A DNA stretch of 64,000 nt from an uncultured Nitrososphaerales archaeon (GCA_963841565.1 CAWJCY010000006.1:64001-128000); one strand, 5' to 3'; numbered from the stretch's first letter, positions 19,734 through 56,426 are shown. The notes: generated by a model from the letters alone, not told the origin. Translations and numbers: made by a program.

Positions 19734-21102
19734 ATGAAGATTTCCACCAAATCTTCCATAAAGTCACCGATAGTTCATGTTGGGCTAGACGATACAGATT
19801 CAACTCAAGGCAAATGCACCACCCATGCTGCTTATAGGATTACTGACTACTTGTTGAATACTAAGTCGATTGAATTTGTTGACTATCCTCTGCTTATCAG
19901 GTTGAATCCAAACATTCCGTGGAAAACTAGAGGTAATGGGGCTGTATGCCTGAGATTCAGAACTTCATATCATGAAGATGTTTTGGAAAGAATAATGGAT
20001 TTAGTTCACAAAGAAAATCTAGTAGCAACTGGTGCTAATCCGGGAATAGCAATCTACCGTGGGGAAACAATACCATACAGTATTCGATGTTTTGCTCGTA
20101 AAGCGTTATGTGACGTAGTTAGCAGGAAAACGGCAGAAGAATTAGCTAAACGTCATGAGATTCATTTTTTCATAGATGGAAATGGACAAGGGCTGGTTGG
20201 ATCTATAGCGAGCTATTGGTACACCTCTACACGAAGACCACACTTTCGAAGCTGTAGCCTATAGAAAACAGGAAAAATGTGGAACGGTAAGAAAACTTGA
20301 TAGTGCGCAGGTAGTTCAATGTGATGCAGAAACGTTCCCTTACACCTTCAATAACTACGATAAGGCACATCATAGGGTACTAATTCTTCCTCATGGACCA
20401 GATCCTGTTTTTTGTGGAGTAAGAGGTGAAAGTGCAGAGGTAGTATGCTCAGCACTTAGAAAATTAAAGATTAGTGAGAAACTTGAAGGGTATATGGTTT
20501 TTAGAACAAATCAAGGTACGAATCAGCATCTTCAAAATGAGGTCGGATTCACAGACATCAAATGTTACACAGCCGGTTTCAGCCAATGCAAAGTCGATTC
20601 CAGACCCACGGTGATTGAAGGTGGCCATGCAATGTTCAGCGTTAAGGATCCCATTGGCGCCGTTGTTAATGCTGCAGTCTACGAACCGACAGATATGGTA
20701 AATATTGCATCCAAACTAGTAGTGGGGGACATCATAAGGATAGGGTTTGGTGTCAGGAAGTCTAGTGCAAAGCATCCAAGAATACTAAATGTAGAATATT
20801 TGCAAGTGTTGGAGACCATGGAAATCTTTGAAACTGTTAATCCCCTCTGCTTAACCTGCAATAAGCGGATGAAATCAGAGGGAACTAACAAAGGATTTCG
20901 TTGTCAGAAATGCGGTCTTCGCGATAGAGAGGTTAAAAAAATCTCGATTCCAAAACCTCGAATGATAGAGACCAAGCTCTTTGTTCCTACCCCAAGGGCT
21001 CACAGGCATTTGACTAAGCCCATTCATCGTTACGGAATGGAGAAGAATTTTGAAGGTACCTCGGAAATAAATTTGTGGTCAGCGTGGTTCTCTAAAACCT
21101 AA
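19734..21102 (+). CDS. tiaS: tRNA(Ile2) agmatidine synthetase TiaS; one extra base at ~20210 (probable sequencing error)
   Basis: GLDDTDS..CTT, RLNPNIPWKTRGNGA; removing 1 nt gives GSIAAIGTPLHEDHTFE, continuing through PHGPDPVFCGVRGE into ORF 20494..21102 (TNQGT, Zn ribbon, RHLTKP). Confidence 0.92.
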
Positions 21103-21187
21103 AAGCTAGCGCTGGTAGAGTCTTGTGAAAACCGACAAGTCGTGCACAAAATTTGTCAATGTCAATATCAATATTGTGAACACAGGA

Positions 21188-21313
21188 TAGCGGGGGGTTG
21201 ATTTGAACTTACGGCATGTACGTGTGAACGTAACAAGTAACCGCTCTGCGGGTTATGAGCCCGCCGGGATAACCTAACCTTCTCCTTGGAGAATCTGGCT
21301 TCCCCACCCCGCT
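21188..21313 (-). tRNA. Initiator tRNA-Met(CAT) with two non-canonical introns (21274..21294 in D-loop, 21209..21238 in T-stem)
   Basis: A1:U72 pair, GGG/CCC anticodon stem, CAT; removing 21 and 30 nt at BHB-defined cuts gives a 75-nt cloverleaf. Confidence 0.92.
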
Positions 21314-21628
21314 AAAAATGCATCAGGGATGAGATAATATATCTTTATTTGTCTTCAAAATTGACATCATAAAGAACAGTCAGAATTTAGTAACTTCTAG
21401 CGAATTGCATCTCTGCACATTTTGATGAAAGGCCGTGTGGGAGATGCTTTGTTTGGTCTCTTACTAAGTAGGTCCCCCTACGACCTCATATTGCGGCATC
21501 TAGGTGATGCTACAATCTACAAACCCACTCCCGGAATACGACATCTAAAACCCTCCTCATCACATTGCGTCAAATTGATTTAACAAGAAAAGATAACTTG
21601 ATTTTCTAGGCAAATCATAGAAACTCTG

Positions 21629-22660
21629 ATGGAGCGGTATCCATACTTCATTGAAGGAGATGCGGACACTATTATCGATCGCCTTTCATTATTACCGAAA
21701 CAAAGGAAAAAATATAGGCTTATAGTTACTTCCCCTCCCTACTACAAGCACAGAAAATATGGCGGTGATGTTAGGGAGCTGGGTAGAGAATCCACTGATT
21801 ACGCATTTGTTGAACGACTTGTCAAGTTATTTGCAAAATGCAAAAGGCTTTTACGTGATGATGGAAGTTTGTGGGTTGTAATCGGGGATAGCCGAAGAAA
21901 TTATGGCAAGCTCTTGATTCCTCATCGTCTCACTGCGGGTTTAGTCAAGGAAGGTTACATTCTTCGAGAGGACATTATTTGGTACAAGAGAAACTACTTA
22001 GCTTCAGGCTCTCAAATTAACTTCTCCCAGGCTTACGAATACGTACTTTTCTTCGCAAAACATAATAATTGTTTTACCAATATGGACTTGATAAGAACCA
22101 AGGGCAATGAAGCAAGGGAGGGACGAAATAAAGAGCCACCCCTAAATATGTTACAATTTGGTCCTGTTCGGCCAGACAAAAAAAAGATTGCCCGCATAAT
22201 GGGGAAAATAACAAAATGGAGCTCTGCTCTGACGACGGAATTTTTGCCGTCTACAAGTGAAATAGCGAGAGCATACGGCTACGACCCCGAAAAATATTGT
22301 CCCACATGCTATCGAAAATTTAAACGTCATGCCACGAGGAATAGGATTGGTGATCACAAACATTATCCTATATTTGCTGTGTGCAATTTGAGAGGCAAGA
22401 ATCCAGGAAATGTGTGGGATATATCAACTAAGGCTCACCATGGAAATGAGCACTTTGCAATCTTTCCTGAAGAGTTAGTGGAGAGAATAGTTAAATTTGC
22501 TACCCAAAAAGGAGATTGGGTGATGGATCCGTTCTCAGGTAGAGGGACTACAGGTATTATTTGTAAAAAATTGAAAAGACGGTTTGTAGGCATTGACCTT
22601 TACCCCAATAATATCTTGCTCTCAAAGAGGAATGTTCAAAAAGCGTCAACTTGTGACTAG
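21629..22660 (+). CDS. Orphan beta-class amino-DNA methyltransferase (probably m4C)
   Basis: Motif IV TSPPY N-terminal, HFAIFP and motif I DPFSGRGTT C-terminal; no neighbouring endonuclease. Confidence 0.9.
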   Translation: MERYPYFIEGDADTIIDRLSLLPKQRKKYRLIVTSPPYYKHRKYGGDVRELGRESTDYAFVERLVKLFAKCKRLLRDDGSLWVVIGDSRRNYGKLLIPHRLTAGLVKEGYILREDIIWYKRNYLASGSQINFSQAYEYVLFFAKHNNCFTNMDLIRTKGNEAREGRNKEPPLNMLQFGPVRPDKKKIARIMGKITKWSSALTTEFLPSTSEIARAYGYDPEKYCPTCYRKFKRHATRNRIGDHKHYPIFAVCNLRGKNPGNVWDISTKAHHGNEHFAIFPEELVERIVKFATQKGDWVMDPFSGRGTTGIICKKLKRRFVGIDLYPNNILLSKRNVQKASTCD

Positions 22661-22753
22661 GAATAGCGCCGGAATAGTTCTTCCATCTGTTATTCCTATG
22701 TTAACCGCGAACTTTTATATTACCAGATTTGGTTCATAATCAAAAGCAACAAC

Positions 22754-23872
22754 ATGCATGCTGCGGTTTTCCACTCACCAAATAATATTTCATTAGAAGA
22801 AAGACATGATGGATATTCCTTAAGTCATCATCAGCGGAGAGGGGTTTTGGTGCGGATGAATGCATGCGCTGTTTGCGGGTATGATGTAAATGTGTATAGA
22901 AATGGACATATCAAAGTCAGGGCCCCCGTTGTCCTAGGGCATGAGATTTGTGGGGAACTCGTAGAATCTCCCAGTTGTGCAATATCACATTCTTATCCAG
23001 ATGAAGATATTTACAAACTCGATCTAGTCGAAGGCACACGAGTGGTACTTTCGCCCGTTGTACCTTGTTTGAATTGTATGTATTGTGATACCGGACAATA
23101 CAACCTATGCACTAACCTTGGAGAAATTGGATCTTCTATAGATGGAGGATTTGCCGAATTCGTACGCATTCCAATCAATACTCTGAGAATTGGAGGGCTC
23201 ATCCCACTCCCTAATTCGCTTACCAATGAAGAATCGACATTGATTGAGCCTCTGGCTTGCTGCCTTAACGGCTTTAAGCGCATTAATTCTATCGTTAATG
23301 ATCGATTGGAAGATAAAACTTTTGTGATACTTGGAGATGGACCAATTGGGCTCATTCACTTACAACTTGCAAAATATCTATATGGTGCTAAAGTGATAGT
23401 TGTCGGACGAGTAAATCATCGACTACAAACAGCAAGAAACATGGGGGCCGATGTTGTGATAGAGCTCGAAGAGAATAAAGACTCACCAACTTGTGCTATC
23501 AAAGAGGTGTTAGACCTAACTAATGGAAAAGGGTCAAGTGTATCGATAATAGCCACTCCAAATCCTGACGCGTTAGAGGTAGCTGCTGGAATCGCTTCTA
23601 AGAATTCTATTATTAATATCTTCGCAGGTATGCCAAGGCATTTGAGTTTTCAACTGGATCCCAACTGGGTTCACTATAATCAGATTGCTCTTATTGGAAG
23701 TTTCAGTGCTACGCCTAAATTAATTCATGAATCAATTGCACTTGTCGCCGAAAAGCGGGGGATTAACCTTTCTTCGATCATCACTCATCGGTGTAAGCTC
23801 GACGAAATATACAAAGCGCTTGAAATTACCGAAGAATTTTTGGGCTTACGGGTAGTAATAAATTCCTTCTAA
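22754..23872 (+). CDS. Zinc-dependent alcohol dehydrogenase (threonine/sorbitol dehydrogenase-like)
   Basis: VCGYD, LGHE, CLNCMYC..C, EPLACC, GDGPIG. Confidence 0.9.
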   Translation: MHAAVFHSPNNISLEERHDGYSLSHHQRRGVLVRMNACAVCGYDVNVYRNGHIKVRAPVVLGHEICGELVESPSCAISHSYPDEDIYKLDLVEGTRVVLSPVVPCLNCMYCDTGQYNLCTNLGEIGSSIDGGFAEFVRIPINTLRIGGLIPLPNSLTNEESTLIEPLACCLNGFKRINSIVNDRLEDKTFVILGDGPIGLIHLQLAKYLYGAKVIVVGRVNHRLQTARNMGADVVIELEENKDSPTCAIKEVLDLTNGKGSSVSIIATPNPDALEVAAGIASKNSIINIFAGMPRHLSFQLDPNWVHYNQIALIGSFSATPKLIHESIALVAEKRGINLSSIITHRCKLDEIYKALEITEEFLGLRVVINSF

Positions 23873-24243
23873 ATCATTGCTAATGATTCCACCGATGTTC
23901 TTCTCACAGAAAATGATGCGATCAAAACGGCTCGTAAAATCTGGAGTGTAAATAGACCAGAATTTTGCATTTAAGAGATTTCGTTTAATTTCACAAAGAA
24001 TAAGGGACAATTTACTTGTTCCCGAACCAGCATCGATTGACTGGATCCTGTGAAAAAGGTCGACTATGTGGAATAAAATCAAAATAACGTCATACGTCTA
24101 GGAAATAAAAAGTGTGAAATCTAAATAAATGCAATTATTTGATGAAGTATGCGGGATCCGAAACAAATTCCAAAGGGCCTCTGACCCTGACCTATATTCG
24201 TATACATTGAAAATAGGGTTAATGATAGGAATTCGTCGAGAAA

Positions 24244-24807
24244 TTAGTACTTATGCTGATGTTTGTAAATCGGAGAATTCAAATCACGTTGCTGAAATAA
24301 CGATTTGATTCGTTTCACACCGTTTATCGTTGCTATGAATTCAGCCGTTGTGTGAGGGACTAGGCTCTGCCAGTCCCTATCTATTACCATTCGACGTCGA
24401 ATTTGGGTTGCTGACAATGCTCTTCTCTTATGTAATCGTGGTTGCACTACCTTTACTCCCCTTTCGGTAAAAAGGTTTTTCGTAAAGGGATCATTTGTAT
24501 AAACCCTGTCATATCGTGGCACAAGTAAATCCATCTGATATGTCCAGAGATAATGAATATCGATGTCTGGAACCGGGATCAAAATAATCCTATGCTCATC
24601 AATTTCTTGCTCTGCGGTTAGGGTCTCACGGATCATCTCTATACGTTCACCTGCTGTAAACGGATTTCTAAATTCATGGCTCCTTTGAGAACTTCCGACC
24701 ACTATTATCAATTCGTCTACTTCTTTAGACGAATCTCTCACAGCCGATAAATGGCCCAAGTGGAACGGTTGGAACCTTCCCACAAGAATCCCTCTTGCTA
24801 TTGCCAT
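24244..24807 (-). CDS. nadM: Nicotinamide-nucleotide adenylyltransferase (NadM)
   Basis: GRFQPFHLGH, NPFTAGERIEMI, SATQIR. Confidence 0.93.
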   Translation of the reverse strand: MAIARGILVGRFQPFHLGHLSAVRDSSKEVDELIIVVGSSQRSHEFRNPFTAGERIEMIRETLTAEQEIDEHRIILIPVPDIDIHYLWTYQMDLLVPRYDRVYTNDPFTKNLFTERGVKVVQPRLHKRRALSATQIRRRMVIDRDWQSLVPHTTAEFIATINGVKRIKSLFQQRDLNSPIYKHQHKY

Positions 24808-25187
24808 AGCTTATTACCCCCGTAGATGGAGGTCCAATTTAAAGGAACATAGTTAGTATTAGGTTATCGAAAACAAGCCAACAAATTCGCGTCATAGGAA
24901 TGTACCAACCCTTTTTTAAATCGGCTTTCAAGCATAGGACCAATGGGATATGGGAGTGGTTTTCAAACAAGAACTAGCAGGGATACCTGTGATTTTCGAG
25001 AAAAAGGATTAATTGCAATAGAATTGACTATATTTTATTAGGAATCTATCTAGTATGGAATACTGTTAGATCAGCTCTTGGTGTCTTTTCATTAGGTTTT
25101 TTACTATAAAGACATGGAGTTGACGAGAGGAAAAATATAGGAAGTAAAACTATTTCCTTTAATATGTCAACGATCCTACTATAATCA

Positions 25188-25586
25188 TTGTTTCCTGTAC
25201 GCAAGAAGGAAAAAGACGCAATGATGAGGAAGAGACAGCAAAGTGTTCCATATGGACCTTGGTTCAATGATCTAAACAAACTGACAACTGAAGAACTTAT
25301 GCGCATGTACAATGTGATTTCAACAGGATCCTACGAGTTTGCAAAGAATGCTTGGTATTTTCCAATAGGAGGTGACCAGAGGTGTCCGATAATGATCGCC
25401 AAAGGCTATAAGCTTCCAATTACATCAAATGAGATGATAGACTTCCAAGATATAGCTTTAGGCCTCGAGAAACAATTCAAAGAATTCGTCGATGCATGGG
25501 ACTACGGGAAAATTACAACAAGAGATATAGAGAATGCAATACTTGAGTTGTTCGAAGTCAGAAGCATTAAGATTATTCAAGATTAG
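25188..25586 (+). CDS. Hypothetical protein
   Basis: 132-aa ORF with protein-like composition; start uncertain. Confidence 0.6.
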   Translation: MFPVRKKEKDAMMRKRQQSVPYGPWFNDLNKLTTEELMRMYNVISTGSYEFAKNAWYFPIGGDQRCPIMIAKGYKLPITSNEMIDFQDIALGLEKQFKEFVDAWDYGKITTRDIENAILELFEVRSIKIIQD

Positions 25587-25905
25587 ATCGGAATGCTAAT
25601 GTATCTCAGAAAACCGGCAACGTGATTTACATTTCCATTAGGTCGTGGGTAAGACAATTTAATCATACAACGTGGTCTCTTACCCCAAAATGAAGCGTTC
25701 ATGATCCAATGACTCAGATTCAGTAGTTCAAATCTACACCTTCATTTGTGGATCATTTTTCTCTACAGTGAAATCCCAACTCATATCCTTAAAGACGCAG
25801 CAAAGAATATCGGGCAAGGCCTGCACAACACCTTTGAGCGTTCCCAAAACAATTAATACCCTATAACATGCAGGAATTACTCCAATTCGTTGTGGGTAAT
25901 ATACG

Positions 25906-27321
25906 ATGAGGGATCTGAAAAATAATGTACCCGATTCTAAACATGAAATGAATGACAAAAATGCTTCACCCGGAGACTGGGTAGTCGTAACTACACACAA
26001 CGGAGATACATTTCAAGGTACTCTTATGCCTAGGTACGCATCAATGGATAAGAAGCACGTTGTCCTAAAATTGAAGAGCGGATATAATCTAGGAATTTTA
26101 TCTTCTAAGGTAAAGTCTATCTGTAAATCTGAACACAATTTAGGACGTGCTACAAATCTTGTAGATACTGCCAAGCCAATGCTACAAATAGAGAAAGAAA
26201 ATTTGCAGCCTGTTCACAAAATTTCACTTATTGGCACCGGCGGCACGATTGCCAGTAAAGTAGACTATCGGACAGGTGGAGTAAGCGCTGCATTGTCTGC
26301 GTCAGAGATCTATGATGCTGTACCAGAGCTTAGAGAATATGCATCTATAGACGCTGATTTCATGTTCAATGAATATAGCGAAAATCTTGAGCCTCATCAT
26401 TGGACTCGGATCGCTAACAGGATCGCTGAGAAAGTAAGGAGTGGAGGCTATCGAGGCATAGTGGTCTCACATGGTACTGATACGATGCACTATACAGCTG
26501 CTGCACTGAGTTTTGCTCTTCACAATCTGCCTATCCCAGTAGTTTTAGTTGGATCTCAAAGATCATCGGATAGACCCTCTTCCGACGGAGCCCTTAATCT
26601 TATAGGTGCCACGATTTTCGCGATAAAATCTCCTTATGCTGGAGTGTTTGTTGCGATGCACGGAAGCACGTCAGATGACTTTATCTCCTGTCATTTGGGA
26701 ACAAGGGTTAGGAAGAATCATACAAGCCGACGAGATGCATTTGAATCAATAGACAGGTTGCCTATCGCCACAGTGAACAATACAGAGGTGAAGATAGAGT
26801 CACAATTTATTAACATGGATATTCCAAATCGTCTTAATAATTACGATGCAAGCTTCTCCAAAAAACTTGAGAGTAATTTCGAAGTCAAGTCGAAATTTGA
26901 TCCAAGGGTTACTCTCATAAAATACCACCCAGGACTAGATCCAAGCTTAATTGGATATGCAGTCAAAACTGGTTGCAGAGCAATCGTTCTTGAAGGAACT
27001 GGATTAGGACATGTAGGAAGAAAATTCTTCCCTGAGGTCGCAAAAGCCATCAAATCAGGTGTGTTGATATTTATGACATCTCAATGTATCTGGGGAAGGA
27101 CGAATATGAAAGTCTATGACACAGGCAGAGACTTGATCGAATTAGGGGTTTTGCCTCTTGAAGATATGACTTCAGAGACGGCTGTGGTAAAGGCGATGTG
27201 GGCAATTGCTAACTCACATGACAATGTAGAGGCAGCAAAAATGATGGAAAGGAACATAGCTAATGAAATATCTTTAATGTCTCCGATAAATAGACGATTG
27301 CTGTATTATGGGAAGGATTAG
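25906..27321 (+). CDS. gatD: Glu-tRNA(Gln) amidotransferase subunit D
   Basis: [41 protein letters not shown]. Confidence 0.96.
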
Positions 27322-27326
27322 ATAGT

Positions 27327-29301
27327 TTGACAACCAAAGCACCTAAGACCGGTTCTAAGTATTCCATTCCAGAATTGGACTCAAAAATTTCAGGAGCCAA
27401 TGTAATGGTAGGCTTGGAGATACATCAACAATTGGCTTCTCAGAGTAAGCTCTTCTGTGAATGTAGTAACAAAGGCGCTGAACAGTCAACCCTGACATTC
27501 ATGCGTAAACTGAGACCTGCATATAGTGAGCTGAGGTGGGTACGATCCAGCAGCCCTCTTCGAAGCAACAAAGATGAAATCTATAAGATATCACAGTCAT
27601 CCCGCCACGAGTTGTTTAGTTGAGGCAGATGAAGAACCACCTCATTCCGTTGATAAGGAGTCTCTCGAAACGGCACTTATAGTTGCGTTGGCGCTTCATT
27701 CTAGGGTAATAGACGAGATTCACGTTATGAGAAAAATTGTGATTGACGGATCCAATACGACTGGATTTCAACGGACTATGTTAGTTGGCACAGGAGGGTA
27801 CCTTGAAATAGATGGAAACAAGAAGGTGGGAGTACAAAGCGTATGCCTGGAAGAGGATGCGGCTCGACTCCTTTCTGACGACAATACCGCGAGAGATTAC
27901 TCCTTAGACAGATTAGGTACTCCATTGGTTGAGGTAGCACTTGAACCTATGAGTGGAACGCCTCAAGAAGTATTACAAGTTGCGGTAACATTAGGAAGGC
28001 TGCTCAGAGCTAGCAAAAGAGTGGAGAGAGGTATAGGTACTATAAGGCAAGATATCAATGTCTCGGTCAACGGAGGAGCGGTAGTAGAAATTAAAGGGAT
28101 TCAGCAACTAGATCAGCTCATCAAAGTTATAGAATTTGAAACAACAAGACAACTTGGCTTGATACAGATCGCAGCTAAATTGACTCAAAGACTTACCCCT
28201 CACGCCTCGGAACACAATAAATATGAAATTCAAGAATCCACGGTAAAAGATGCAACTGACATTTTAAGACGCTCTTCCTCTAAGGCAGTGGTCCAGATTT
28301 TAGAGAGAGAAAGCACACAATTTATGGCGATAAAGGCAGAGGGATTGAATGGAATCTTAGGGTACGAGCCCTATGCTGGGGTGAGACTTGGCAGACAGTT
28401 AGCTGAAATAGTAAGATTCTATGGGTTAGGCGGAATTTTTCATTCTGATGAACTGCCTAACTATGGAATTACAGAGTCCGAAGTTGCAGCAATCAAGGAA
28501 AGATTGGGTATGGCAAGCGGACGTGATGCATTTATTTTGATTGGCGGTGACAGTGATAGGGTTCAATTCGCCGTTAATGCAATTCTTCAGAGGTTGGAGA
28601 AGGCAACGCAAGGTGTTATACCTGAAACGAGGGCAGCGACGCTGGATGGGAAAACGATTTTCATAAGACCGAGACCTGGGTCAAGCCGAATGTATCCTGA
28701 GACTGATGTCCTTCCTATAAAAATAGATGATTTGACTTTGGATTCATTGAAAGCCTCAGTGCCCAAACCATTTGAAAGTTACATAAAAGATATAATGCAA
28801 AGATATCACCTTAACCGCAAACTAGCCCTTGAGATTTTTGACTCTGATCGCCTGAAACTCTTTGAGAACATAGTCAAAAGTACAAAGGTACAACCAACTT
28901 TTATTGCCTCAAAAATAACAGAAGATCTCACTAGCCTAAGGAGGAAGGGCTTGAATCCAGATAGACTTTCCGATAAGTCGATTAAAATAGCATTTCAATT
29001 GCTTGATGCAGGCGATATAGCGAAGGAATCGATTCCAGTAATACTTGAGACTATGCTAACGAAGGATCTCGATGATGTAAAAGAGGCCATTCAGACTCTT
29101 GGTCTTAAACAAGTAAGCGAAAGTGAACTAAATGAAATCATAGACAAGATAATCGGTGAGAACATGGTCTTGATTAAACAAAAAGGGAGAGATTCGTTGG
29201 GAACACTGATGGGCAGGAGTATGTCATTACTAAGGGGCAGAGTAGATGGAAAAACGGTAAGTTCCATTCTTGAAAGTAAATTGGAACAAAGTCTATCGTA
29301 G
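27327..29301 (+). CDS. gatE: Glu-tRNA(Gln) amidotransferase subunit E; one extra base at ~27533 (probable sequencing error)
   Basis: [13 protein letters not shown] in first ORF; removing 1 nt gives [13 protein letters not shown], joining ORF 27574..29301 ([18 protein letters not shown]). Confidence 0.94.
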
Positions 29302-29466
29302 AGTAGCGTAATTTGCAGTTTCGAGTTTATCTAGCAATATGCGAATACGACCTACTTGATGCGATGAGGATTAATTCATCCTGGTTACGTCCAGATTTTT
29401 CGCTGAATATTTTATAACAGAATTTATATTGTTCATTTGTGTTAAAATGCATGAATTTGGATTAGC

Positions 29467-29766
29467 ATGAATGGTTCAACTGAAAGCGCCACAACTTCTA
29501 CGTCAAATGTTCTGGCTTCAACAAACAATGAAACAAATCGAAAGGCAAAAGAAGCCATTTTTGTTCTATGTGACAATTGTCACTGGGCTGCGACATTTAT
29601 TGACAAGTCGAGATTGGATCTCATAGAAAATGGTTGTATTATATGTGAGGAATCTCTTGTTTCGAGTTTTCCGATTCTTGATAATGAATCATTTACCATT
29701 GATATTACTGAACGAAGGGGTGTAGAATTGAACTTCGGGGTCCGTAGGAAAAAAAATAAGACTTGA
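29467..29766 (+). CDS. Small zinc-ribbon-like protein
   Basis: LCDNCHW...CIIC...RGVELNF. Confidence 0.7.
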   Translation: MNGSTESATTSTSNVLASTNNETNRKAKEAIFVLCDNCHWAATFIDKSRLDLIENGCIICEESLVSSFPILDNESFTIDITERRGVELNFGVRRKKNKT

Positions 29767-29867
29767 ATAATTCTAATTCCAACCACTCAAGTTTAAGTAA
29801 CCAATACAAAGTATCGAATCGAAAATGAGATGGGCCTTTCGAGGCTAAAATTATGAGATAACCCTTA

Positions 29868-30284
29868 TTATACCTGCGATTTTCCACATGACCTGCAAAA
29901 TTTGGCTTTAGAGTTAATTTCTGCACCACAACCGTTGCAGCTCCGTTTGAATGGGCTTCCTGGTGTGTTTCCGCTAGATATACTCGGGACAACGACGTTG
30001 TCTGACTCGCTTAACTGATGTGGTTCAACTTGCGACTTACCTCCTTTAGTTTCCAGGTTGCTCTTTAACTCGAGGACAAACCGTGCCTCCAAGAAGTTTA
30101 CTTTGGTCAGATCCAGTAGATAATCGCTTAACTTGTAAAAAAAATTAACATCATCAATCTTACCTTTCTTGTAAAGCTGAGCATCATCGATGAATGATTC
30201 ATACTTATCCTGTACGCCTTCTAAGACCTGCTTTAGCTGCTCTCCTAGTTCGGCTAAATTGCTCTTAGAAGAACCTTTCGACAT
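29868..30284 (-). CDS. Zinc-ribbon domain protein
   Basis: C-terminal CNGCG..AKFCRSCG. Confidence 0.8.
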   Translation of the reverse strand: MSKGSSKSNLAELGEQLKQVLEGVQDKYESFIDDAQLYKKGKIDDVNFFYKLSDYLLDLTKVNFLEARFVLELKSNLETKGGKSQVEPHQLSESDNVVVPSISSGNTPGSPFKRSCNGCGAEINSKAKFCRSCGKSQV

Positions 30285-30450
30285 TATAATACTCCTATTT
30301 TCTAGGACTAATATATCCTATTGATGCCATCGGTACATTTTCATTATGCTGTTCAAAAAGATGTGTCATCTCATTATTAAGATTTAGCGAAGCATCATTG
30401 CCTTGATAAAACACATTAATATCGATTTGAAGTCCAACTGAAGCACTAAA

Positions 30451-30525
30451 GGAGGGGTTGTCTAGACTGGTTAGGATACCTGCCTTACACGCAGGTGGTC
30501 ATGGGTTCGAATCCCATCCCCTCCA
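30451..30525 (+). tRNA. tRNA-Val(TAC), intronless
   Basis: GGAGGGG/CCCCTCC acceptor, CCTGC CT TAC AC GCAGG, ATGGG TTCGAAT CCCAT. Confidence 0.96.
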
Positions 30526-31047
30526 TTGCAGTAATGGGTTTTAGCTGACCTTATAAGTGTAAACTGGTACAGCTCACAAATGTATGATATATCTAGGGTA
30601 ACTCGCGACGAGGATGATATCTTGGGTGTTAGGAAGTTGATGAAATTGTGCTTTTGCGCCAAATTTGTGCCATTGAATCAGCAGTTTCAGAAGAACATTG
30701 GTTGATTGTCTTACCCTAGGCGTAGTGTACGGAGGCATAAATTTTTTTTAATTTAAGGGAGGCAAATTTCCGTGAAGCTTCGGATGACAAGGTTGTATTC
30801 GATTAGAATTTCAAAAGATAAACACCAAAGCTGGTCGACGTCTCATATCGCAACAATTAACCTTACTATTTGGAGAAGTATTTGCACCTTGTCAAAACGG
30901 TCTTACAAATAAATCTCTAGAAGCTCTTTAACGTATGTTTGGATAATCAGAAAGAAGTGGTAAAGTTGTTCTGCCTTTTTTCTAATAAATGATAGTAGAA
31001 TTGGTAATAGTTGATAGAGGAGGCAGAATTGATAAGTCTGATAAGCA

Positions 31048-31668
31048 ATGAGTGCCCGCATTTTTACCCCCGATATAAAGGTAGAACATGTAATTTCATT
31101 TAGTGACGCGGTATTTGCATTTGCCATAACTCTTATGGCGCTCACAATCGATATACCTGATTTACCTCTAAATCTTAGTCAATCAGAACTTTTACAGAGA
31201 CTAGATGATTTTTATCCTCAGTTCGAAGACTACGTTATTAGTTTTGCTGTTATTGCGACCTTCTGGATATCATATCATCAGGTTTTCAACCATATTAAAA
31301 GTTCGCATATCTCGATGGTTTACCTTAATCTCTTATTTTTGTTACTCATAACTCTACTATCATTAACAACTTCATTTGTAACGAACTACGCATCGTATCA
31401 GATACCATACATTATTTACTGCATAGTAGTAATTATGGCAAGCTCGTTACTTGTATTAATATGGTGGTTTGCCACAAGGCAGCACCGATTAGTAGACAAA
31501 GGGATACATCCACTATTCATAAAGGGCACCTTCTTAGTCCTTCTATCGCTACCCATAATTTTTGGTATTTCCATAGTTATCTCCTTTGTTGATTTAGATA
31601 TTGCACAATATTTCTGGTTAAGTATTATCCCAGTGAATATCTGGATTAGACACAAGTATAGACATTAA
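31048..31668 (+). CDS. TMEM175 (DUF1211) family potassium channel
   Basis: FSDAVFAFAITLM signature, YVISF..I..FW..YH, multiple TM helices. Confidence 0.88.
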   Translation: MSARIFTPDIKVEHVISFSDAVFAFAITLMALTIDIPDLPLNLSQSELLQRLDDFYPQFEDYVISFAVIATFWISYHQVFNHIKSSHISMVYLNLLFLLLITLLSLTTSFVTNYASYQIPYIIYCIVVIMASSLLVLIWWFATRQHRLVDKGIHPLFIKGTFLVLLSLPIIFGISIVISFVDLDIAQYFWLSIIPVNIWIRHKYRH

Positions 31669-31752
31669 ATGACTTGCCAATGTAGAAATCCCAATATGCG
31701 TTGTACGAGCTTGTAGGGACTATGGTAAACATTGAACATCTGAAATAAATTA

Positions 31753-31850
31753 GGTTTTAAATGTATACAGTGTCCAGAGTAGGCCATCTTTTAATGGGTC
31801 CCAATGTGGAAAGAATCTATATGACCAACACGTTCGATACGAAGATGAGA
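31753..31850 (+). pseudogene. Possible decayed zinc-finger gene remnant
   Basis: FKCIQCPE*AIF* then, with a frame change, SQCGKNLYDQHV. Confidence 0.25.
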
Positions 31851-46719: not shown

Positions 46720-46737
46720 AGTCGTAATTGGCCTAAA

Positions 46738-47337: not shown

Positions 47338-47609
47338 GCAAGCCTCCGATTTAGGTCAAGTAGTCTAGCGGAATGCTCGTATGACAGCAGCAGGCTCATG
47401 AACAATAGCAATAGCTACCAATGCCCAGCATGATTTTCTGCCTGGGAAACATGTATCAATTGCATGGCTAAGGCTTTCCAGCTATCAAGTTATCTTGATA
47501 ATCAGATAACAATTCGTATCTGAGAGTTGAATATGAAATTTGAAAAATTGGTATCATAGTATTTTTACCGTAGTCAGAAATTAAATAAAGCTCTGGAAAG
47601 TCATAATGT

Positions 47610-47918: not shown

Positions 47919-48210
47919 AAATAGGAAAATCGAGAAGAGAATGGACTGGTTCTGGCTCTGAAATCCAACTATTTGAAGATTGTAATTTTCCTTGTTCTCC
48001 CATGCGACATGGAAATTTCGAAACTTTTGAGATCTTTATGTCGTTTCGATTTCTCGATATTGGGGTCTTGTAAAAGATTTTTAATCTATGGAAGGTATGT
48101 CTGAGATAACATAGATTGATCCACCCGATGGGGATCATCTACGTTTGAAAGAAAAGATAATTAGAGTTTAATCACAATTATATTGTCTTATATAGGCTAG
48201 ATAAAATACC

Positions 48211-48285
48211 GCGGAGTTAGCCCAGACTGGTTAAGGTACGAGCTTCCCAAGCTCGGGATCGCGGGTTCAAATCCCGCACTTCGCA
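48211..48285 (+). tRNA. tRNA-Gly(CCC), intronless
   Basis: GCGGAGT/ACTTCGC acceptor, CGAGC TT CCC AA GCTCG, GCGGG TTCAAAT CCCGC; TTATATA upstream. Confidence 0.95.
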
Positions 48286-48521
48286 TGTATGGATTTTATT
48301 GTGACTGTGCTGATTGACCGGTGCTCGCCACTACTAGATCTTCGTTAGAATATCTCGTAGACCTAAATGATGAAAAAAGCTTCCGAGCCTCGGAAAAGAC
48401 GACATATTATTGTTCCTACATTTCAAGGTCCATCCTGCAAGTGAGTTTGTTTATGAAAATCAGACTATTAGAATCGCGATCATAAATCACCAAAAGTGAA
48501 AAGGAATGTCGATCAATAATT

Positions 48522-49427: not shown

Positions 49428-49561
49428 TATCTTATATAAAAACAGTTATAATGATCCGTATTCAAATATTTAAACCTAACCGTATGTGTTCGAACCTAAG
49501 AAAAATTTAAGCTTGGCCAGATTTTGCTCAAAATAATTTCAAATACCCCAGACTACGTACC

Positions 49562-50221
49562 TTGGATAATATGTTAGGTGGCAGGGATGTTAGAAAGATA
49601 CTAGTGGCCTACTTGAATGAAAGGCATAAAAAGTTAAGAAAAATTATCAACGACCCGACCAGAATTTATGCGTCTGAAGCGTCCCAGTGTACAAGACTTT
49701 CATATTATGAGAGAGTTGACCCAATTAATTCAAATTCAGCAGAACTATTCCAGATTCTGTTGACGCATGGATTTAGACATTCATTCGAAAATATAGAATC
49801 TGAGTATAAGACAGATAATCTGACCCTCGGACTTACAGCAGATATCATTCTAGAAAAGGAGCTTGTAGTAAGGTTGCAAATAACAGATTCCTTGCCAGAC
49901 TCTCCTAAGCCTCAAGATTTGCTCTATCTCAATGCCTGTCTTTATGCTTTTGACAAACCAGAGGGAATTTTGATCTATGTGCGAGGAGATGGGAAATCAT
50001 CAGAATTTTTAGTAGCAAAGAGTGCGAAAATGTTTGAGGAATTAATAAGAAGAGCAAGGGTCCTTAGTACGCTGCTTAAAGAGAAAAGAGTGCCTATCGT
50101 TGAACCGTCTGAATCTTGCATGACTTGCAAGTATTATGGGAGATGTTACATGATGGAAAGAAAGGAAACCAGCTTCTCAATAGAAAGTCTGTTTGGGAAG
50201 TCTAAAGATGAATCTGCTTAA
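49562..50221 (+). CDS. Solo Cas4-like Fe-S protein with degenerate nuclease motifs
   Basis: IYASEASQCTRLSYY at N-terminus, CMTCKYYGRC at C-terminus. Confidence 0.75.
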   Translation: MDNMLGGRDVRKILVAYLNERHKKLRKIINDPTRIYASEASQCTRLSYYERVDPINSNSAELFQILLTHGFRHSFENIESEYKTDNLTLGLTADIILEKELVVRLQITDSLPDSPKPQDLLYLNACLYAFDKPEGILIYVRGDGKSSEFLVAKSAKMFEELIRRARVLSTLLKEKRVPIVEPSESCMTCKYYGRCYMMERKETSFSIESLFGKSKDESA

Positions 50222-50806
50222 TCAAGGGAAACTTAAAGTGAAAGGTCGATCTCCTCCACTAGCTTGAAGTGTAGACGTCTGGCTAAATGAGTATGTGCCG
50301 TTCACTTGGTATGACTCTATCTGGTTCATACTCAACCGATTCCAGATCTCTGAATTTTGGCTATTCCGAGCAAGTTGATCAGTATCTTTCAGAGTCACAT
50401 TCCCAGAAGCTATTACTGGAAAGACGTTATCTTGAGACTCAAGAAAACCCTCCAACCTTTCACCGATTTCGCCTGATGCAATTTCGCTGTTGTTAACTAG
50501 CACTTTGTATTGAATTGACTCAAGGATAATAGTCCCCCTATTGGGATTATGAGCGTCAAAAGTAATCTGCAAATTGGAATGTGAACTATCTATTGGTTCA
50601 ACCGTAACATTCTTGATTGATATGACAATAGGATTGTATGTTCGATCTGTAGATTGTGTTTCAGTGTTTGAAGGACTTTGGAGAGTCGACGCAGGGGCTT
50701 GTGTTTCAGCATTCTCGTTGTTAGAAGCAACCCCCCAATAAGTAACTCCAGTAATTACAGCTATTGCGATGGCTGAAGAGATGTAAATGATCTTCCTCTT
50801 ATTCAT
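50222..50806 (-). CDS. Membrane-anchored LEA type 2 (WHy)-like protein
   Basis: N-terminal TM, HNPN..ILESIQYKVLVN..IASG. Confidence 0.7.
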   Translation of the reverse strand: MNKRKIIYISSAIAIAVITGVTYWGVASNNENAETQAPASTLQSPSNTETQSTDRTYNPIVISIKNVTVEPIDSSHSNLQITFDAHNPNRGTIILESIQYKVLVNNSEIASGEIGERLEGFLESQDNVFPVIASGNVTLKDTDQLARNSQNSEIWNRLSMNQIESYQVNGTYSFSQTSTLQASGGDRPFTLSFP

Positions 50807-51060
50807 CTGATGAGATCACTTCTATGTTCTTATATGAATTCCTTTTCAATCTTGAATCAGAGCGAAAGTGAAAAGAAATTTAGAAAACGAATGCGTCGAT
50901 CTAAACATCAGTGGACATCGCAGTCCATCGGAAAAGTATGTCGTTGTCGCAGATAAGATGATTCAAGATTATACATCAACTACGCATGGTTTGTGAGAAT
51001 CAAGCACTCTAAATAGATTCCAACAACACTAAAATACTAAAAGATATAGAAGAAATCTAA

Positions 51061-51315
51061 ATGCCTACGGCTTACATTTTGGTAAATTGCACATTAGGTT
51101 CGGAAGAGCGAATTATTGGTGAAATCTCTAATTTGCCCGATGTGAAAGAAGTAAGAGGAACATATGGTGTTCATGATGTTTTCGTTAAAGTGAAATCAGA
51201 CAACACAGAGGCGATGAATCACACTATAACTAACAAGATTAGAAAAATCCCGGGAATAACTTCCACCGTAACACTAGTAGTCATAGAAGAGCAAGGCGGC
51301 AAGGAAAATCATTAG
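51061..51315 (+). CDS. Stand-alone Lrp/AsnC ligand-binding (RAM) domain protein
   Basis: AYILVN..VKEVRGTYGVHDVFVKV..IRKIPGITSTVTL. Confidence 0.9.
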   Translation: MPTAYILVNCTLGSEERIIGEISNLPDVKEVRGTYGVHDVFVKVKSDNTEAMNHTITNKIRKIPGITSTVTLVVIEEQGGKENH

Positions 51316-51528
51316 TTACTCATTTTGAGGTAGCTCCTTACCTCGGTCCTCTTTCTTAATCTTCTTGATCATGTAGATGATCAAAGAGGTGCTTATTGGC
51401 ATTATAATCCAGCCAGTTATCCCTACGATGAGATAAACTTCGTATGTTGGTATGAATAAAGAGATACCTGCAAGAGCCGCACCTACCCACCAAGCGATGA
51501 TTAAAATCTGTAGGTTTGATTTTGCCAT
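51316..51528 (-). CDS. Small two-TM membrane protein
   Basis: Two hydrophobic helices, basic tail. Confidence 0.65.
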   Translation of the reverse strand: MAKSNLQILIIAWWVGAALAGISLFIPTYEVYLIVGITGWIIMPISTSLIIYMIKKIKKEDRGKELPQNE

Positions 51529-51539
51529 AAATCAATTAC

Positions 51540-51722
51540 CTAGCCACGCAGATCTTCGTCAAACCCCTTCAGATATCTCAAAATTTTACCGCATTTTGAA
51601 CACTGATCGTATTCCCGAAAGTCAAAGTCATTATACTTCCGAAATGAGAATGATTCAACGTGATTACAGAAGAGTCTTCTTATCAGCTGATGAAGCATCA
51701 GATACTCTATTAAATCGGGCAT
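51540..51722 (-). CDS. Small putative zinc-binding protein
   Basis: LFCNH...CSKCGK. Confidence 0.6.
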   Translation of the reverse strand: MPDLIEYLMLHQLIRRLFCNHVESFSFRKYNDFDFREYDQCSKCGKILRYLKGFDEDLRG

Positions 51723-51766
51723 TTTTTACCATTTCGATTTGGTATGGGAATATTCTCAACCGAAAA

Positions 51767-51860
51767 TGCCGTCGGTGAGATTTGAGCTCACGACAGGTCG
51801 GTCTTCAGCTTCACCCCACACTAATTGGTCGAGTGCTCTCCCGGGCTGAGCTACGACGGC
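51767..51860 (-). tRNA. tRNA-Phe(GAA) with 20-nt non-canonical intron at 30/31 (51810..51829)
   Basis: GCCGTCG/CGACGGC acceptor; CTCG [ACCAATTAGTGTGGGGTGAA] G CT GAA GA CCGA; BHB helix CACT/GGTG. Confidence 0.9.
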
Positions 51861-52190
51861 ATGTTACACTGTTCGTGGATGGATCATATATATTCCTATC
51901 ATATTCTCCGCAAAGCTCAAATTAGATGGTCGACCTGCCTTCGCAAATGACTTTCAATCATATGCGTGAGTCTGCGTGCCTTTTGTTACAAGAAAGGTAT
52001 TGTTACGGTTTATGCAGATAGTTAAAAACCGACCTGATAGCATGTATTTTACTGGTTTTGACAGCTTAGTTCAGCGTGAAAAGCCCCACTCACGTTATGG
52101 TTAGATTGCTTACAACAGAAGCAAATCATTGCACAAGATTTCAACCTTACAAAGTAGTTAAGAAAAGTTTATGAAGAATAACAGTAGGAG

Positions 52191-52749
52191 ATGAATAATC
52201 CAGTTAGGAGATCTCGTTTGAAGATATCGGTTCTAAGAATAGGACATAGATTTGTCCGAGATGATCGGGTAACTACTCACGTTGCTCTGGTGGCTAGAGC
52301 ATTGGGTTGTGATCGAATTTTCATGAATGAAGTGGATAAATCGATTAGATCAATGATGGACGAGATTATAGAGAGATGGGGAGGACAGTACTTTAACATA
52401 GAAATAATCGAGAGTTGGGAATCGACAATAAAGCATTGGAAGAATGAAGGCGGAAAGGTCGCTCATCTGACCATGTACGGTCTAAATATAGACGAAGTCA
52501 TCGATGATTTACGTAACTGTGATAAGTTGCTTGTGGTGGTGGGTGCTTCTAAGGTTCCTAAGGAGCTGTACCAGGTTTCCGATTACAACGTTGCAATAGG
52601 AAACCAGCCTCATTCTGAAATAGCACTTTAGCAATATGCTTGGACAGAATTTTCAATGGAAAGGAGTAACAAAGCAATTTGATGATGCAAAATTAAAAAT
52701 TGTTCCTTCTCCGAATGAAAAAAAGATATTGAACAATTCTCGAGACTAG
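52191..52749 (+). CDS. trm56: tRNA (cytidine56-2'-O)-methyltransferase aTrm56; two single-base deletions near the 3' end (probable errors)
   Basis: RIGHRFVRDDRVTTHVAL, HLTMYG, GNQPHSE; restoring bases at 52625/6 and 52666/7 gives EIAALAICLDRIFNGKELTKQFDDAKLKIVPS. Confidence 0.9.
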
Positions 52750-52944
52750 TATAGTCTTTAAATTAATAGCTGAATGAAGACCTTATTCCAATTCAAGGAA
52801 GGTTTTTGTCAAGCGTACTTGAATGCATATGTCGAGAAATCAACTCACTAACGTTTGGTAGTATATAAAAAGATGGAAGATCGGAATCCCTTTGTCTTTT
52901 GCGGTTGACAAATAATATAACCCTCTCTCGAAAGAGGAGTATCA

Positions 52945-54015
52945 TTGGAAAAAGGTTTAATGAACATATCCTCAGCAATCAAGAACTATTATTCGTATAT
53001 GAATCAAATAGTTACTATGCCTGATTTTTTTTTAGATCGAATCCTACTCCTGCAATCACAAGATGAGCTTTTTCAGTCGATCGTTAACAAGATTAGCGTA
53101 GGGGGAGGGAGTATACGTGAAATTCCAACGGTCGACCGAAAAGGAGGAAATGCGGCCAACATTGCCTATAGTATTGCTAAGCTGGGAGGAAAAGTCGCGT
53201 TTTTCACCGTGGGAGATAAGATTGCGAGATCTGTGATCGAAACCACATTTCAAAAATTTGGAGAAAATGTAGAAATTATGATCTCTGAGGGGATACAAGG
53301 AAAAACCACCTCGATGGAACTTTATGAAAATGTGCAGGGCGATTCTAAAGTTAATGTTATGCTAAGTGATGTTGGAGATAATGCGGACTTTGGGAAAGCA
53401 AGAGTAAACACAGAGAATCATATGAAAATATTAAGTAGAGCTGACGCTGTCATCGTTGCGAATTGGGCAAGCAATTTAAAAGGAACTGAATTAATGAAAT
53501 TCGCATTTGAAAGCTCGCCAAAGGCTCTACATTTCGTTGAATCCAGCTGATTTTGAACTTAGGAAGGAAGAATTTATCGAAATTCTTGCTCTCTTGTCAA
53601 ATCAAATAGATGTGCTTAGTATCAATGAGAATGAATGTAACACGCTTGGATCATCATTGGGATTAGGTACCTTGTTACCCTGGCAATCGTATTCAAGACA
53701 AGAGATCAAGGACGCTCGCTAAAGCTATCTGAGAAAATAGGAATAAGTATTGACATTCATACTAAATTAGGATCGGCTTGGTCAAACGGGAAAGATAGTG
53801 AAATGGTTCCAACAATCAGAAGCGAGATCAGAACCCTGACTGGAGCGGGAGACGTATGGGACACGGCCGATGTCGTTGCATATCTTGCAGGTCTGGATCC
53901 TATAGACAGGTTAACGTTCGCAAATGCCGCATCCTCCCTTTATGTCCGTAATCATTTTGCCGAGTCACCAAGCCTTGAGGAAGTTGTTGAGTTACTGGAT
54001 AGAATCAACATGTAG
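52945..54015 (+). CDS. PfkB-family carbohydrate kinase; two frameshifts (~53540, ~53718; probable errors)
   Basis: GGNAAN, (D)PAD, SINENE and TGAGDVWD distributed over three consecutive frames. Confidence 0.85.
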
Positions 54016-54154
54016 GCCTTTTTGCAAATTATTTTGACAGTGACTTGTTAATCGAGAGTTAAAGAGAAAGTCATTAGCTACTCAAAGGGATTGTAATAGA
54101 GGGGTCTACTAATATAGATTCGGTTATATAAGTATCAATTTATTTAGCAGGTTA

Positions 54155-54475
54155 ATGGCTCCTCCGCCTATCGATGCATCAGAATTCGAAGCGCATAAAG
54201 ACCTAAACCGAATCGTAGTAGATTTCCTGTGTCGAAATAGCGATAAGGCATTTTCGGTAAAAGAAATTGCAGAGTTTACTGGCATTAGAGAAGAAGACAT
54301 TAATTATCTGATGCTTAAACTGTCGTTTCAGGACGTAATCAGCAATTTATCTGGCATTATTGTACATAGAAAGGTTAGTAGGATTGGTAACCTCCGCCCA
54401 ATAAGGATAGAAGATGTCACAATTGATGGAACAATATATTATAGATGTGTAAAATTGGATGCTAAAAAATCATAG
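54155..54475 (+). CDS. Small winged-helix-like protein
   Basis: IVVDFLCRNSDKAFSVKEIAE...GTIYY; TTATATAA upstream. Confidence 0.65.
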   Translation: MAPPPIDASEFEAHKDLNRIVVDFLCRNSDKAFSVKEIAEFTGIREEDINYLMLKLSFQDVISNLSGIIVHRKVSRIGNLRPIRIEDVTIDGTIYYRCVKLDAKKS

Positions 54476-54562
54476 CCTGCCGAAGTGTCCTGTTGTCAAG
54501 TGATTTTTCAATAACTTCCCTCGAATTGATAGAAATTGAAGGCCTGAGATATCTTCTCTGAA

Positions 54563-55837
54563 GTGAGGTTCTCCATCCTGGAAAAGACCGTTCCTTTGAT
54601 TGATCAACAAGCTGGTATTAAGCACTATTGTACTGCGTTTAATGGTATAGGCGGAAAGATCAAACAAAATCCAGAGGATTTTCTAGTAAAAGAGATCCTA
54701 AATAAACAATACCTTGAAAACTTGTCGAAGAATTCATCCTCTGGCCATCGCTTTCCAGTTTTTATTCTAAAAAAGCATAATATCGATTCCAACCACGCTA
54801 TCTTCGAAATACGTAACCAACTTAACTTGGAACTAAGAGTCCTCGGCATAAAAGATGCCAAGGCCAGCACGATGCAATATGCCACCACAATTCAGAATAC
54901 ACGAAATCTACCCCCAAGGGCCAAGACTAACCACACTGAAATTTGTCTTATAGGATACAGCAGTATACTACTCTCAAAATCAGATCTTTGGGGAAATCAA
55001 TTTACTGTTCTGATATTTGAACCCAAGAGCGCAGATTTGACTGATTTTCTACCTGAAATAGATCATATAGCTAATTTCTACGGTCTCCAGAGGTTTGGAA
55101 GTGAAAGGATGGTAACTCATAATGTTGGAAGGGAAATACTTAAGGGGAATTTTAGACGAGCATCTGAATTGCTCCTAACTGAGACTACCAGATATGATAC
55201 CGCATATAGCAGAGAGATCAGAGAGCAATTGTCTGACCCAAGCAACTACTACAAACTCATGGCTCTTTTGCCTAAGGGCATGGATATCGAAAGAGAAATA
55301 GTGCGATCGTTACTCTATAAGAGAGACTATATTCGTGCGCTAAGGGCAATCCCCATTGGAATTCGACGGTTGTACGTCCAGGCCTATCAAGCCTATATAT
55401 TCAACCTTTGTATGAGCGAATCTCTATCTTGCGGTGAGGATATAGCGAAATGTAGGGTTGGTGACTTGTGCTTTGAGATCGAAGGTAATGATGTACTTGG
55501 AAAGATTAGGAAACTAAACCCCACCATTGATACCTTTTCTACAGTGCTTCCCGCGGTACGACTTGTAGGATATTCGTTCCAGACCGGAAAAGGACGCTTC
55601 GAATCTATTTCACAAAAAATCCTCAAAGAGGAAGGACTGACACCAAGAGATTTCTACATTCGAGATATGCAGGAGCTTAGCGCTAAGGGCGGATTCAGAC
55701 AATCGGTTCTTTGGTGTAAGGGATTTAATCATTCTGGATCCCTACACATCAGTTTCAAATTGCCTAAGGGCTCCTATGCCACTACCCTCTTAAGAGAAAT
55801 TATGAAGCCAGATTCCCCGATCGAAGCTGGTTTCTGA
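54563..55837 (+). CDS. truD: tRNA pseudouridine(13) synthase TruD/Pus7
   Basis: PEDFLVKE, GIKDAKA, NFYGLQRFG, AYQAYIFN, FKLPKGSYATTLLRE. Confidence 0.95.
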   Translation: MRFSILEKTVPLIDQQAGIKHYCTAFNGIGGKIKQNPEDFLVKEILNKQYLENLSKNSSSGHRFPVFILKKHNIDSNHAIFEIRNQLNLELRVLGIKDAKASTMQYATTIQNTRNLPPRAKTNHTEICLIGYSSILLSKSDLWGNQFTVLIFEPKSADLTDFLPEIDHIANFYGLQRFGSERMVTHNVGREILKGNFRRASELLLTETTRYDTAYSREIREQLSDPSNYYKLMALLPKGMDIEREIVRSLLYKRDYIRALRAIPIGIRRLYVQAYQAYIFNLCMSESLSCGEDIAKCRVGDLCFEIEGNDVLGKIRKLNPTIDTFSTVLPAVRLVGYSFQTGKGRFESISQKILKEEGLTPRDFYIRDMQELSAKGGFRQSVLWCKGFNHSGSLHISFKLPKGSYATTLLREIMKPDSPIEAGF

Positions 55838-55938
55838 GCTAAGCTGATACAAAAATTAGTCTCTACAGCTCCAACCGCAATGACTGCTAGACAAGGGATA
55901 GAGTATGCTAACCTTCATCTGAGGTTTTAGCACAAGTC

Positions 55939-56426
55939 CTAATTGGTTCTAACAAGTTTTACTATTCTTATCATGACGTTAATAGTAATGGCTGAAAGCA
56001 TCCACGACAATATAGTACTTAGAATAGCTGTCTGATACGGAGATATTATAGCTCAGCTGGAGGAGCTGATAAAGGATCAGAATTTTTGAGGTGGAATAAA
56101 TTATTTCAGAAACTGAAAAAGTAGCAATAAGCTTCTTTATATCGCTTCTTAACTTGTGTGAATCTCTCTTTTTTGTAACCGGATCAAGATACCTGTTTCT
56201 ATTGTCGATATAGAAAAGTACTCCGAATATTGGAAAGAATACACTGTACTCAGTCGCTATTGAGACAAAGGAATTTATGAGATTGCTTCCACCTGTCTGT
56301 GAGTACCAGCTGAGTAACTAGACTACCAACCAGAAGTGATGAAATGCCTGCAATTATTAGATTCTTGTTGAAATACAAAACTTCTTTATACTTCAAGTAA
56401 AGATCGTAGATGCGCTGGTTACTCAT
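55939..56426 (-). CDS. Four-TM membrane protein (GtrA-like); two single-base insertions (~56307, ~56054; probable errors)
   Basis: Removing 1 nt at each site gives MSNQRIY..FNKNLIIAG..VTQLYSQTGG..EYSVFFPIFGVLFYIDNR..DIKKLIATFSVSEIIY..SPYQTAILSTILSW..NVMIRIVKLVRTN*. Confidence 0.7.

Follow-up and report, generated by a model that had tools for sequence, protein, structure and literature searches.

Coding frameshifts at AGCT, GCWGC and GTAC in the assembly of an uncultured Nitrososphaerales archaeon: consensus errors and an indirect hint at a cytosine methylome

The 64,000-nucleotide (nt) stretch of DNA analysed here, called the window, is positions 64001-128000 of contig C6 (CAWJCY010000006.1) in assembly GCA_963841565.1 (G000) of an uncultured Nitrososphaerales archaeon. 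It holds eight small insertions or deletions (indels) that disrupt the genes for TiaS, GatE, Trm56, a PfkB-family kinase and a membrane protein, together with one substitution in a tRNA gene. Comparison with near-identical sequences indicates that the indels are almost certainly consensus errors of a long-read assembly. Coding frameshifts gather on three palindromic motifs, AGCT, GCWGC and GTAC, across the genome, and they are probably best explained as motif-specific errors of base-calling or polishing on modified DNA. The assembly comprises 2.05 Mb in 13 contigs (about 40% G+C, 88.4% complete, 4.4% contaminated). An archaeal AmoA (Pfam Archaeal_AmoA PF12942, 393 bits) is encoded on contig C1, so the organism is an ammonia-oxidising archaeon, and archaeal-type TiaS, GatE and aTrm56 are also present in the genome.

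Broken genes and their near-identical copies

The window was compared with five genomes of the same genus (G002, G005, G008, G009 and G010) that are syntenic with it at 82-91% DNA identity. At least three of the five aligned over 62,256 of the 64,000 positions, and the pile-up was used to list indels private to G000. Three contigs are much closer. Two of them come from public metagenome contigs, which were searched with a sequence pattern from the surroundings of the gatE site, and are 99.06% identical to window positions 17522-37549 (L170, about 20 kb) and 99.31% identical to positions 26982-31767 (L171). The third, contig C10 of the same assembly (32.7 kb, 1-32728), is a second copy of positions 31769-64518 at 99.12% identity and is separated from C6 by 222 substitutions and 25 gaps. 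Most likely C10 stems from a closely related strain that was co-assembled, or is a haplotig that stayed in the bin, and an extra copy of this kind would raise the contamination estimate. Part of positions 50500-59500 is also represented in 19 public sequencing runs from 11 studies (best share 0.84).

An earlier note on this DNA, made from the sequence alone, had described the eight indels and the tRNA substitution. All nine were found where it placed them, and all are private to contig C6. They are listed below by window position; bracketed letters are bases gained or lost, and strand is given where the feature has one.

20210..20211: tiaS, extra G, GC[G]AGCT; extra against five of five relatives, and L170 reads GC-AGCT
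27533: gatE, extra G directly after AGCT 27529-32; absent in eight of eight relatives, L170 and L171
51767..51860, minus strand: intron-bearing tRNA (Rfam, 39.7 bits) with G at 51797 (AGGT for AGCT), which breaks the 27:43 pair
52625..52626: trm56, missing G, GCA[G]CT, where GCAGC and AGCT overlap; G in five of five relatives, and C10 reads GCAGCT
52666..52667: trm56, missing C of AG[C]T; five of five relatives and C10 read GGAGCTAAC
53540..53541: pfkB-family kinase gene, extra A, GA[A]TC; five of five relatives and C10 read TTGATCC
53715..53716: pfkB-family kinase gene, missing base; five of five relatives are one base longer, and C10 identifies a lost C, GACG[C]CTCGCT
56054: membrane gene on the minus strand, extra C, AGCT[C]AGCT; five of five relatives and C10 read AGCTAGCT
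56306..56307: same membrane gene, extra C, GTAC[C]AGCT; extra against five of five relatives, and C10 reads GTACAGCT

Pfam bears out the gene identities proposed in the earlier note, with TiaS in two pieces, an N-terminally incomplete GatE, a shortened Trm56 and a PfkB-family kinase. The extra base at 20210 splits tiaS into open reading frames (ORFs) at 19734-20264 and 20494-21102, and the two pieces match TiaS_TCKD and Zn_ribbon_TiaS. When the base is removed, frames of 178 and 297 codons become a single frame of 457 codons. At this place the relatives read GCGGCT, not AGCT, and the true GCAGCT is shown only by the 99%-identical L170, which carries unbroken ORFs for a TiaS of 455 amino acids (aa) and a GatE of 657 aa. 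The indel at 27533 severs the N-terminus of gatE (ORFs 27327-27623 and 27574-29301), leaving a frame of 588 aa against 656-670 aa in the relatives, and its removal extends the upstream 109-codon frame to 668 codons. The Pfam match to Trm56 is cut down to 83 of 119 profile positions.

Base 51797 of the tRNA gene is C in all five relatives and in C10, so that AGGT should indeed be AGCT, and Rfam flags a non-standard pair at this position of the stem. The anticodon region of the gene contains about 20 inserted nt, and apart from base 51797 the gene is identical in the five relatives; ARAGORN, run on 51600-52000, reported no tRNA. None of the nine sites lies in a homopolymer run longer than 2, and in this too the earlier description holds.

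L170 and L171 lack the extra G at 27533, L170 also lacks the extra base at 20210, and the remaining six indels, like the tRNA substitution, are missing from C10. All nine changes are thus contradicted by near-identical sequence, which points to consensus errors rather than mutations and agrees with the assembly errors that had been proposed. For the genome as a whole, about 1.3 Mb of relatives' contigs were aligned to G000, isolated gaps whose length was not a multiple of three were taken as frameshifts, and a gap was assigned to G000 if the relative's frame stayed open for 40 codons or more to either side of it and that of G000 did not. G000 was the broken partner in 58 pairwise calls (53 unique places) and the relatives in 11, eight of them in the five short-contig relatives and three in another member of the genus, G003. 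Differences in the length of A, T, C and G homopolymer runs are present against both L170 and C10.

It is most improbable that the indels are real mutations of this strain, arising through pseudogenisation or through mutagenesis at modified sites. The only support for such an origin is that each indel stands in the deposited sequence. It would imply roughly one coding frameshift per 10 kb of the G000 consensus, with hits in tiaS, gatE, trm56 and a tRNA stem, and it has to face both the absence of all nine changes from the 99%-identical sequences and the accompanying homopolymer-length errors, which are typical of base-calling.

Motif context of the frameshifts

A motif was scored when it lay within 1 nt of an indel, in the deposited or in the corrected sequence, and backgrounds were estimated with 30,000 pseudo-events placed at random among the covered positions. 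The earlier note had put eight of eight window indels at AGCT. On this count six of the eight are in contact with it (20210, 27533, 52626, 52667, 56054 and 56306) and two are not: 53540 lies 4 nt before AGCT 53545-48 and falls within GATC once corrected, and 53715 lies 7-8 nt before an AGCT and is in contact with none of the three motifs. The sites at 20210 and 52626 are in GCAGCT and hence also in GCWGC, and 56306 adjoins both GTAC and AGCT. That the co-location exceeds chance, as had been argued, is borne out by six of nine coding events in the window against a background of 3.8% (p=2e-7). AGCT occurs 242 times in the window (1/264 bp) and 7,211 times in the genome (1/285 bp), which matches the spacing of roughly 300 bp on which that argument was built, and it is not depleted genome-wide (observed/expected 0.94).

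In a set of 55 coding frameshifts from 528,273 bp, AGCT was in contact with 19 (background 3.8%, p=6e-14), GCWGC with 10 (background 1.8%, p=6e-8) and GTAC with 7 (background 2.7%, p=6e-4). GATC was in contact with 3 in the same set (background 4.9%), which is not significant. The 46 events outside the window gave the same three motifs, with 13 at AGCT (p=1e-8), 9 at GCWGC and 6 at GTAC. Adding the comparison with G003 extended the set to 76 coding frameshifts in 713,486 bp, of which 23 were at AGCT (background 4.1%, p=2e-14), 18 at GCWGC (1.8%) and 9 at GTAC (2.6%). None of the other palindromes in the tested set of 48 4- and 5-mers ranked as high as AGCT, GCWGC and GTAC.

The errors are stereotyped. 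Single-base insertions make up 54 of the 76 events, and the recurrent forms are [C]AGCT or AGCT[G] (7 events), an insertion inside AGCT (4), GCT[C]GC (10) and GCWGC[C] (4). Typical products also include AG[N]CT from AGCT, and GCT[C]GC, equivalent to GC[G]AGC, from GCWGC; the product GCTCGC/GCGAGC is found in 16 of 76 events. If the GCT[C]GC signature is included, the GCWGC count rises from 18 to 24, and 50 of the 76 events then fall on the three motifs, the rest being homopolymer-length errors or unexplained. The sites that carry an error are a small part of those available: 23 of 2,683 for AGCT, 24 of 1,290 for GCWGC and 9 of 1,784 for GTAC.

The genome-wide tabulation upholds the enrichment of AGCT that the earlier note had predicted, although not its exclusive role, since AGCT accounts for about 30% of events, GCWGC for a similar share and GTAC for about 12%. 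It is therefore very unlikely that AGCT is the sole modified motif and explains essentially all frameshifts. That narrower version draws on the six of eight window indels in contact with AGCT and on five GCWGC events that overlap AGCT as GCAGCT. It is opposed by 19 of the 76 events that lie at GCWGC or its signature without AGCT, by 8 that lie at GTAC only, and by the same split among motifs in G003. The further idea that assembly errors map the methylome did not hold up either: with about 1% of AGCT sites in error, the errors would sample a methylome rather than map it.

G003, which belongs to the same genus, is likewise rich in errors (20 contigs, 4.1 Mb, 86% identical to G000). Its own frameshifts number 79 in about 407 kb, and they too are enriched at AGCT (29, p=1e-21), GCWGC (20, p=7e-17) and GTAC (10, p=6e-5). 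A frequent product in this genome is CAG[A]C.

Candidate methyltransferases and the origin of the errors

The window itself encodes a DNA methyltransferase that may bear on these motifs:

21629..22660, plus strand: beta-class N6/N4 DNA methyltransferase, 343 aa; PF01555 (153.8 bits), TSPPY at motif IV, DPFSGRG

TSPPY or SPPY is a hallmark of beta-class N4-cytosine enzymes, and adenine enzymes carry DPPY or NPPY. The gene is an unbroken 343-aa ORF in L170 as well, and its orthologues are found at 76-92% identity in 10 of the 12 genus genomes searched; elsewhere in the order, outside the genus, there are only distant paralogues. Judged from its sequence, the enzyme is a candidate writer for one of the cytosine motifs. 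G000 has a second PF01555 gene (C3:62722-63420, 290 aa), and in both enzymes TSPPY precedes DPFxGxG. Four relatives, G003, G008, G009 and G010 (in the last on C199), have a third TSPPY paralogue, which tblastn did not find in G000, a genome that is 88% complete. C5 enzymes (PF00145) were found in none of the 12 genus genomes. Neither Dam-type PF02086 nor type I/IIG PF02384 was found in G000, nor any DPPY enzyme, again at 88% completeness; that no adenine enzyme is obvious agrees with the absent GATC enrichment. Two other leads were set aside. A weak third PF01555 hit, on contig C2, proved to be a generic UbiE-like S-adenosylmethionine-dependent methyltransferase, and similarity to PDB structures returned generic beta-class matches only, which gave no assignment of specificity.

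In the explanation that we favour, native DNA would be methylated at AGCT, GCWGC and GTAC. The mark would probably be N4-methylcytosine (m4C), placed by the SPPY-type PF01555 methyltransferases of the genus, of which there are three paralogues in the genus and two in the assembly. A base-caller untrained on the modification would misread the signal on both strands of the palindrome, and an error made on both strands would survive the consensus. We infer the sequencing platform from a nanopore-like error profile, and likewise the modification, its chemistry and the pairing of enzymes with motifs. A genus with three cytosine-type enzymes, as many palindromes that contain cytosine, and neither an adenine enzyme nor a GATC signal would make a coherent picture.

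Errors of this type have been described. In Klebsiella, about 70% of nanopore consensus errors were in the Dcm motif, with homopolymers next (PMC6591954). The nanopore errors at Dcm CCWGG sites in Enterobacteriaceae (Wick et al. 2019, PMC6591954) resemble those of G000 in that they persist in a polished consensus, sit on a short palindromic methyltransferase site, have homopolymer errors as the second class and involve a motif set that depends on the taxon. They differ in that the motifs here are AGCT, GCWGC and GTAC, the presumed mark is m4C rather than 5-methylcytosine, and most events are single-base insertions.

The methylation has precedents as well. A Nitrosoarchaeum metagenome-assembled genome (MAG) has m4C at 96% of AGCT sites and N6-methyladenine (m6A) at 98% of GATC sites (PMC6329791), two MAGs of marine Thaumarchaeota have AGCT modified at 82-91% (PMC8919816), and a REBASE-derived table lists three thaumarchaea with AGCT m4C and others with predicted enzymes for GCWGC and GTAC (PMC11033074). 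The earlier note had mentioned reports of AGCT m4C in thaumarchaeal methylomes, and these sources document it. The organism studied here resembles the carriers of this AGCT system (M.Nca01I, M.NspBD3I and M.TarMY3I; PMC6329791, PMC8919816, PMC11033074) in being an ammonia-oxidising archaeon, in having AGCT among its two top error motifs and in encoding candidate PF01555 enzymes with SPPY. Unlike the published combination of AGCT m4C with GATC m6A, G000 has neither GATC error enrichment nor a Dam-type or DPPY enzyme that we could find; GCWGC and GTAC come in addition, and close homologues of the window enzyme occur only within the genus. For the two additional motifs, the link to known systems is motif identity only. 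GCWGC m4C is reported from the Chloroflexi MAG BD1 and, as HGCWGCK, from Haloferax mediterranei (PMC6329791, PMC11033074), and m4C at both GTAC and AGCT from Methanospirillum hungatei (M.MhuII and M.MhuIV; PMC6329791, PMC11033074), all as type II systems. The artefact and AGCT m4C in Thaumarchaeota are therefore already published, and a three-motif cytosine methylome in the genus is possibly new.

A bias of the base-caller or polisher at palindromic k-mers, unrelated to modification, might also misread both strands, even in unmodified DNA. A palindrome presents the same k-mer on both strands, so such a bias would survive the consensus, and it would sit well with several observations: only about 1% of sites are affected, the products are as stereotyped as GCT[C]GC (10-16 times), C10 is free of the errors at identical motif sites, and G000 and G003 may share a pipeline. 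We nevertheless consider it unlikely. All three motifs contain cytosine and match published recognition sites of methyltransferases in Archaea (PMC11033074, PMC6329791), their number equals that of the SPPY-type enzymes of the genus (three), palindromes of similar frequency (TCGA, CATG, GATC and TGCA) are not enriched, and published work has tied this type of error to methylation (PMC6591954).

Several points weigh against motif-specific errors on modified DNA, or against the data behind them. The platform and the modification are both inferred. With 0.5-2% of motif sites in error, sequence context or coverage must matter too, and C10, derived from the same data, lacks the errors at identical sites. 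G000 has two candidate enzymes for three motifs, and the rule that SPPY means m4C has exceptions. G000 and G003 possibly come from one laboratory or pipeline, in which case G003 replicates the pattern and not its cause. Substitutions in the five-relative pile-up are not enriched at AGCT (4/52 against 933/12,324, or 7.6%); those between C6 and C10 show no clear enrichment either (12 of 222 within AGCT), and the tRNA substitution thus stands alone. A genome-wide, annotation-free test of overlaps between same-strand ORF pairs gave weak enrichment for AGCT (odds ratio 1.2-1.5, p=0.007-0.16, with 1.4 at p about 0.01 within this range), and an odds ratio of 1.4-1.8 for GTAC; its weakness is due to dilution by ordinary gene junctions. 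Finally, the polarisation of events rests on the openness of ORFs against one relative, and 2 of 11 window calls were false, and one call of the GCT[C]GC type (53715) was proved by C10 to be something else.

Taken further, the errors on modified DNA that we favour would lead to a more specific proposal: that this soil and sediment genus has an all-m4C methylome at AGCT, GCWGC and GTAC, written by three SPPY-type PF01555 paralogues, and lacks m6A at GATC, a mark found together with AGCT in Thaumarchaeota of marine and freshwater habitats. We put this forward tentatively, as a possibility that falls somewhat short of even chances.

Other differences in the window and consequences

C10 brings to light four small errors in the window beyond those listed above, three at AGCT and one at GTAC:

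50913..50914: two extra G, GT[GG]AC; C10 reads CAGTACATC
51971: extra T in AG[T]CTGC; C10 reads GAGCTGCG
54476: extra C in AG[C]CTGCC, where ORF 54155-54475 stops; C10 reads TAGCTGCC, and four of five relatives are one base shorter
55860..55863: AGCTCT read as AG-TCTC in the C10 alignment; the loss of one base and the gain of another cancel out

Four further indels are private to G000 and none of the four is at AGCT. Correcting 1899, 58263 or 35101 fuses no frames into a long ORF, and at 58263 an ORF becomes shorter; the indel at 7640 alters only the last codons of an 88-aa ORF. Two candidate frameshifts, at 1496 and 5855, were dropped as the differences are private to a single relative.

Some observations concern the sequence around these places. 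Relative to both L170 and L171, one base is missing at 30615 and one is extra at 30691, 76 nt away; this pair reflects a local misalignment or else a compensated frameshift, and none of the three motifs is in contact with it. The region around 5855 (about 5820-5895) is near-invariant in the five relatives, a 28-29-nt piece of it (5867-5895) has copies of 96-97% identity on further contigs in the relatives, and the stretch may be a conserved RNA or a repeat. Four places in G000 (C12:344-348 kb, C4:8.8-13.2 kb, C6:35-40 kb and C2:93-94 kb) align with one and the same stretch of G003 (L189, about 11-15.5 kb), which suggests a multi-copy element of several kb.

The practical use of these results is mainly a warning about quality, with an indirect hint at the methylome. 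False frameshifts in G000 and G003 number roughly a couple of hundred, and they distort gene calls, pseudogene counts and the completeness estimate of 88%. The essential genes tiaS, gatE and trm56 appear broken although they are not, and both assemblies need polishing, with short reads or in a modification-aware manner, before gene loss is claimed from them. The absence of errors at GATC does not prove the absence of methylation there. For the biology of the genus, the error pattern amounts to an indirect prediction that AGCT, GCWGC and GTAC are modified, probably as m4C, with three candidate enzymes, of which the window encodes one. If this is true, the residual frameshifts of public long-read MAGs would offer, at no cost, a proxy for the methylation motifs of uncultured lineages.

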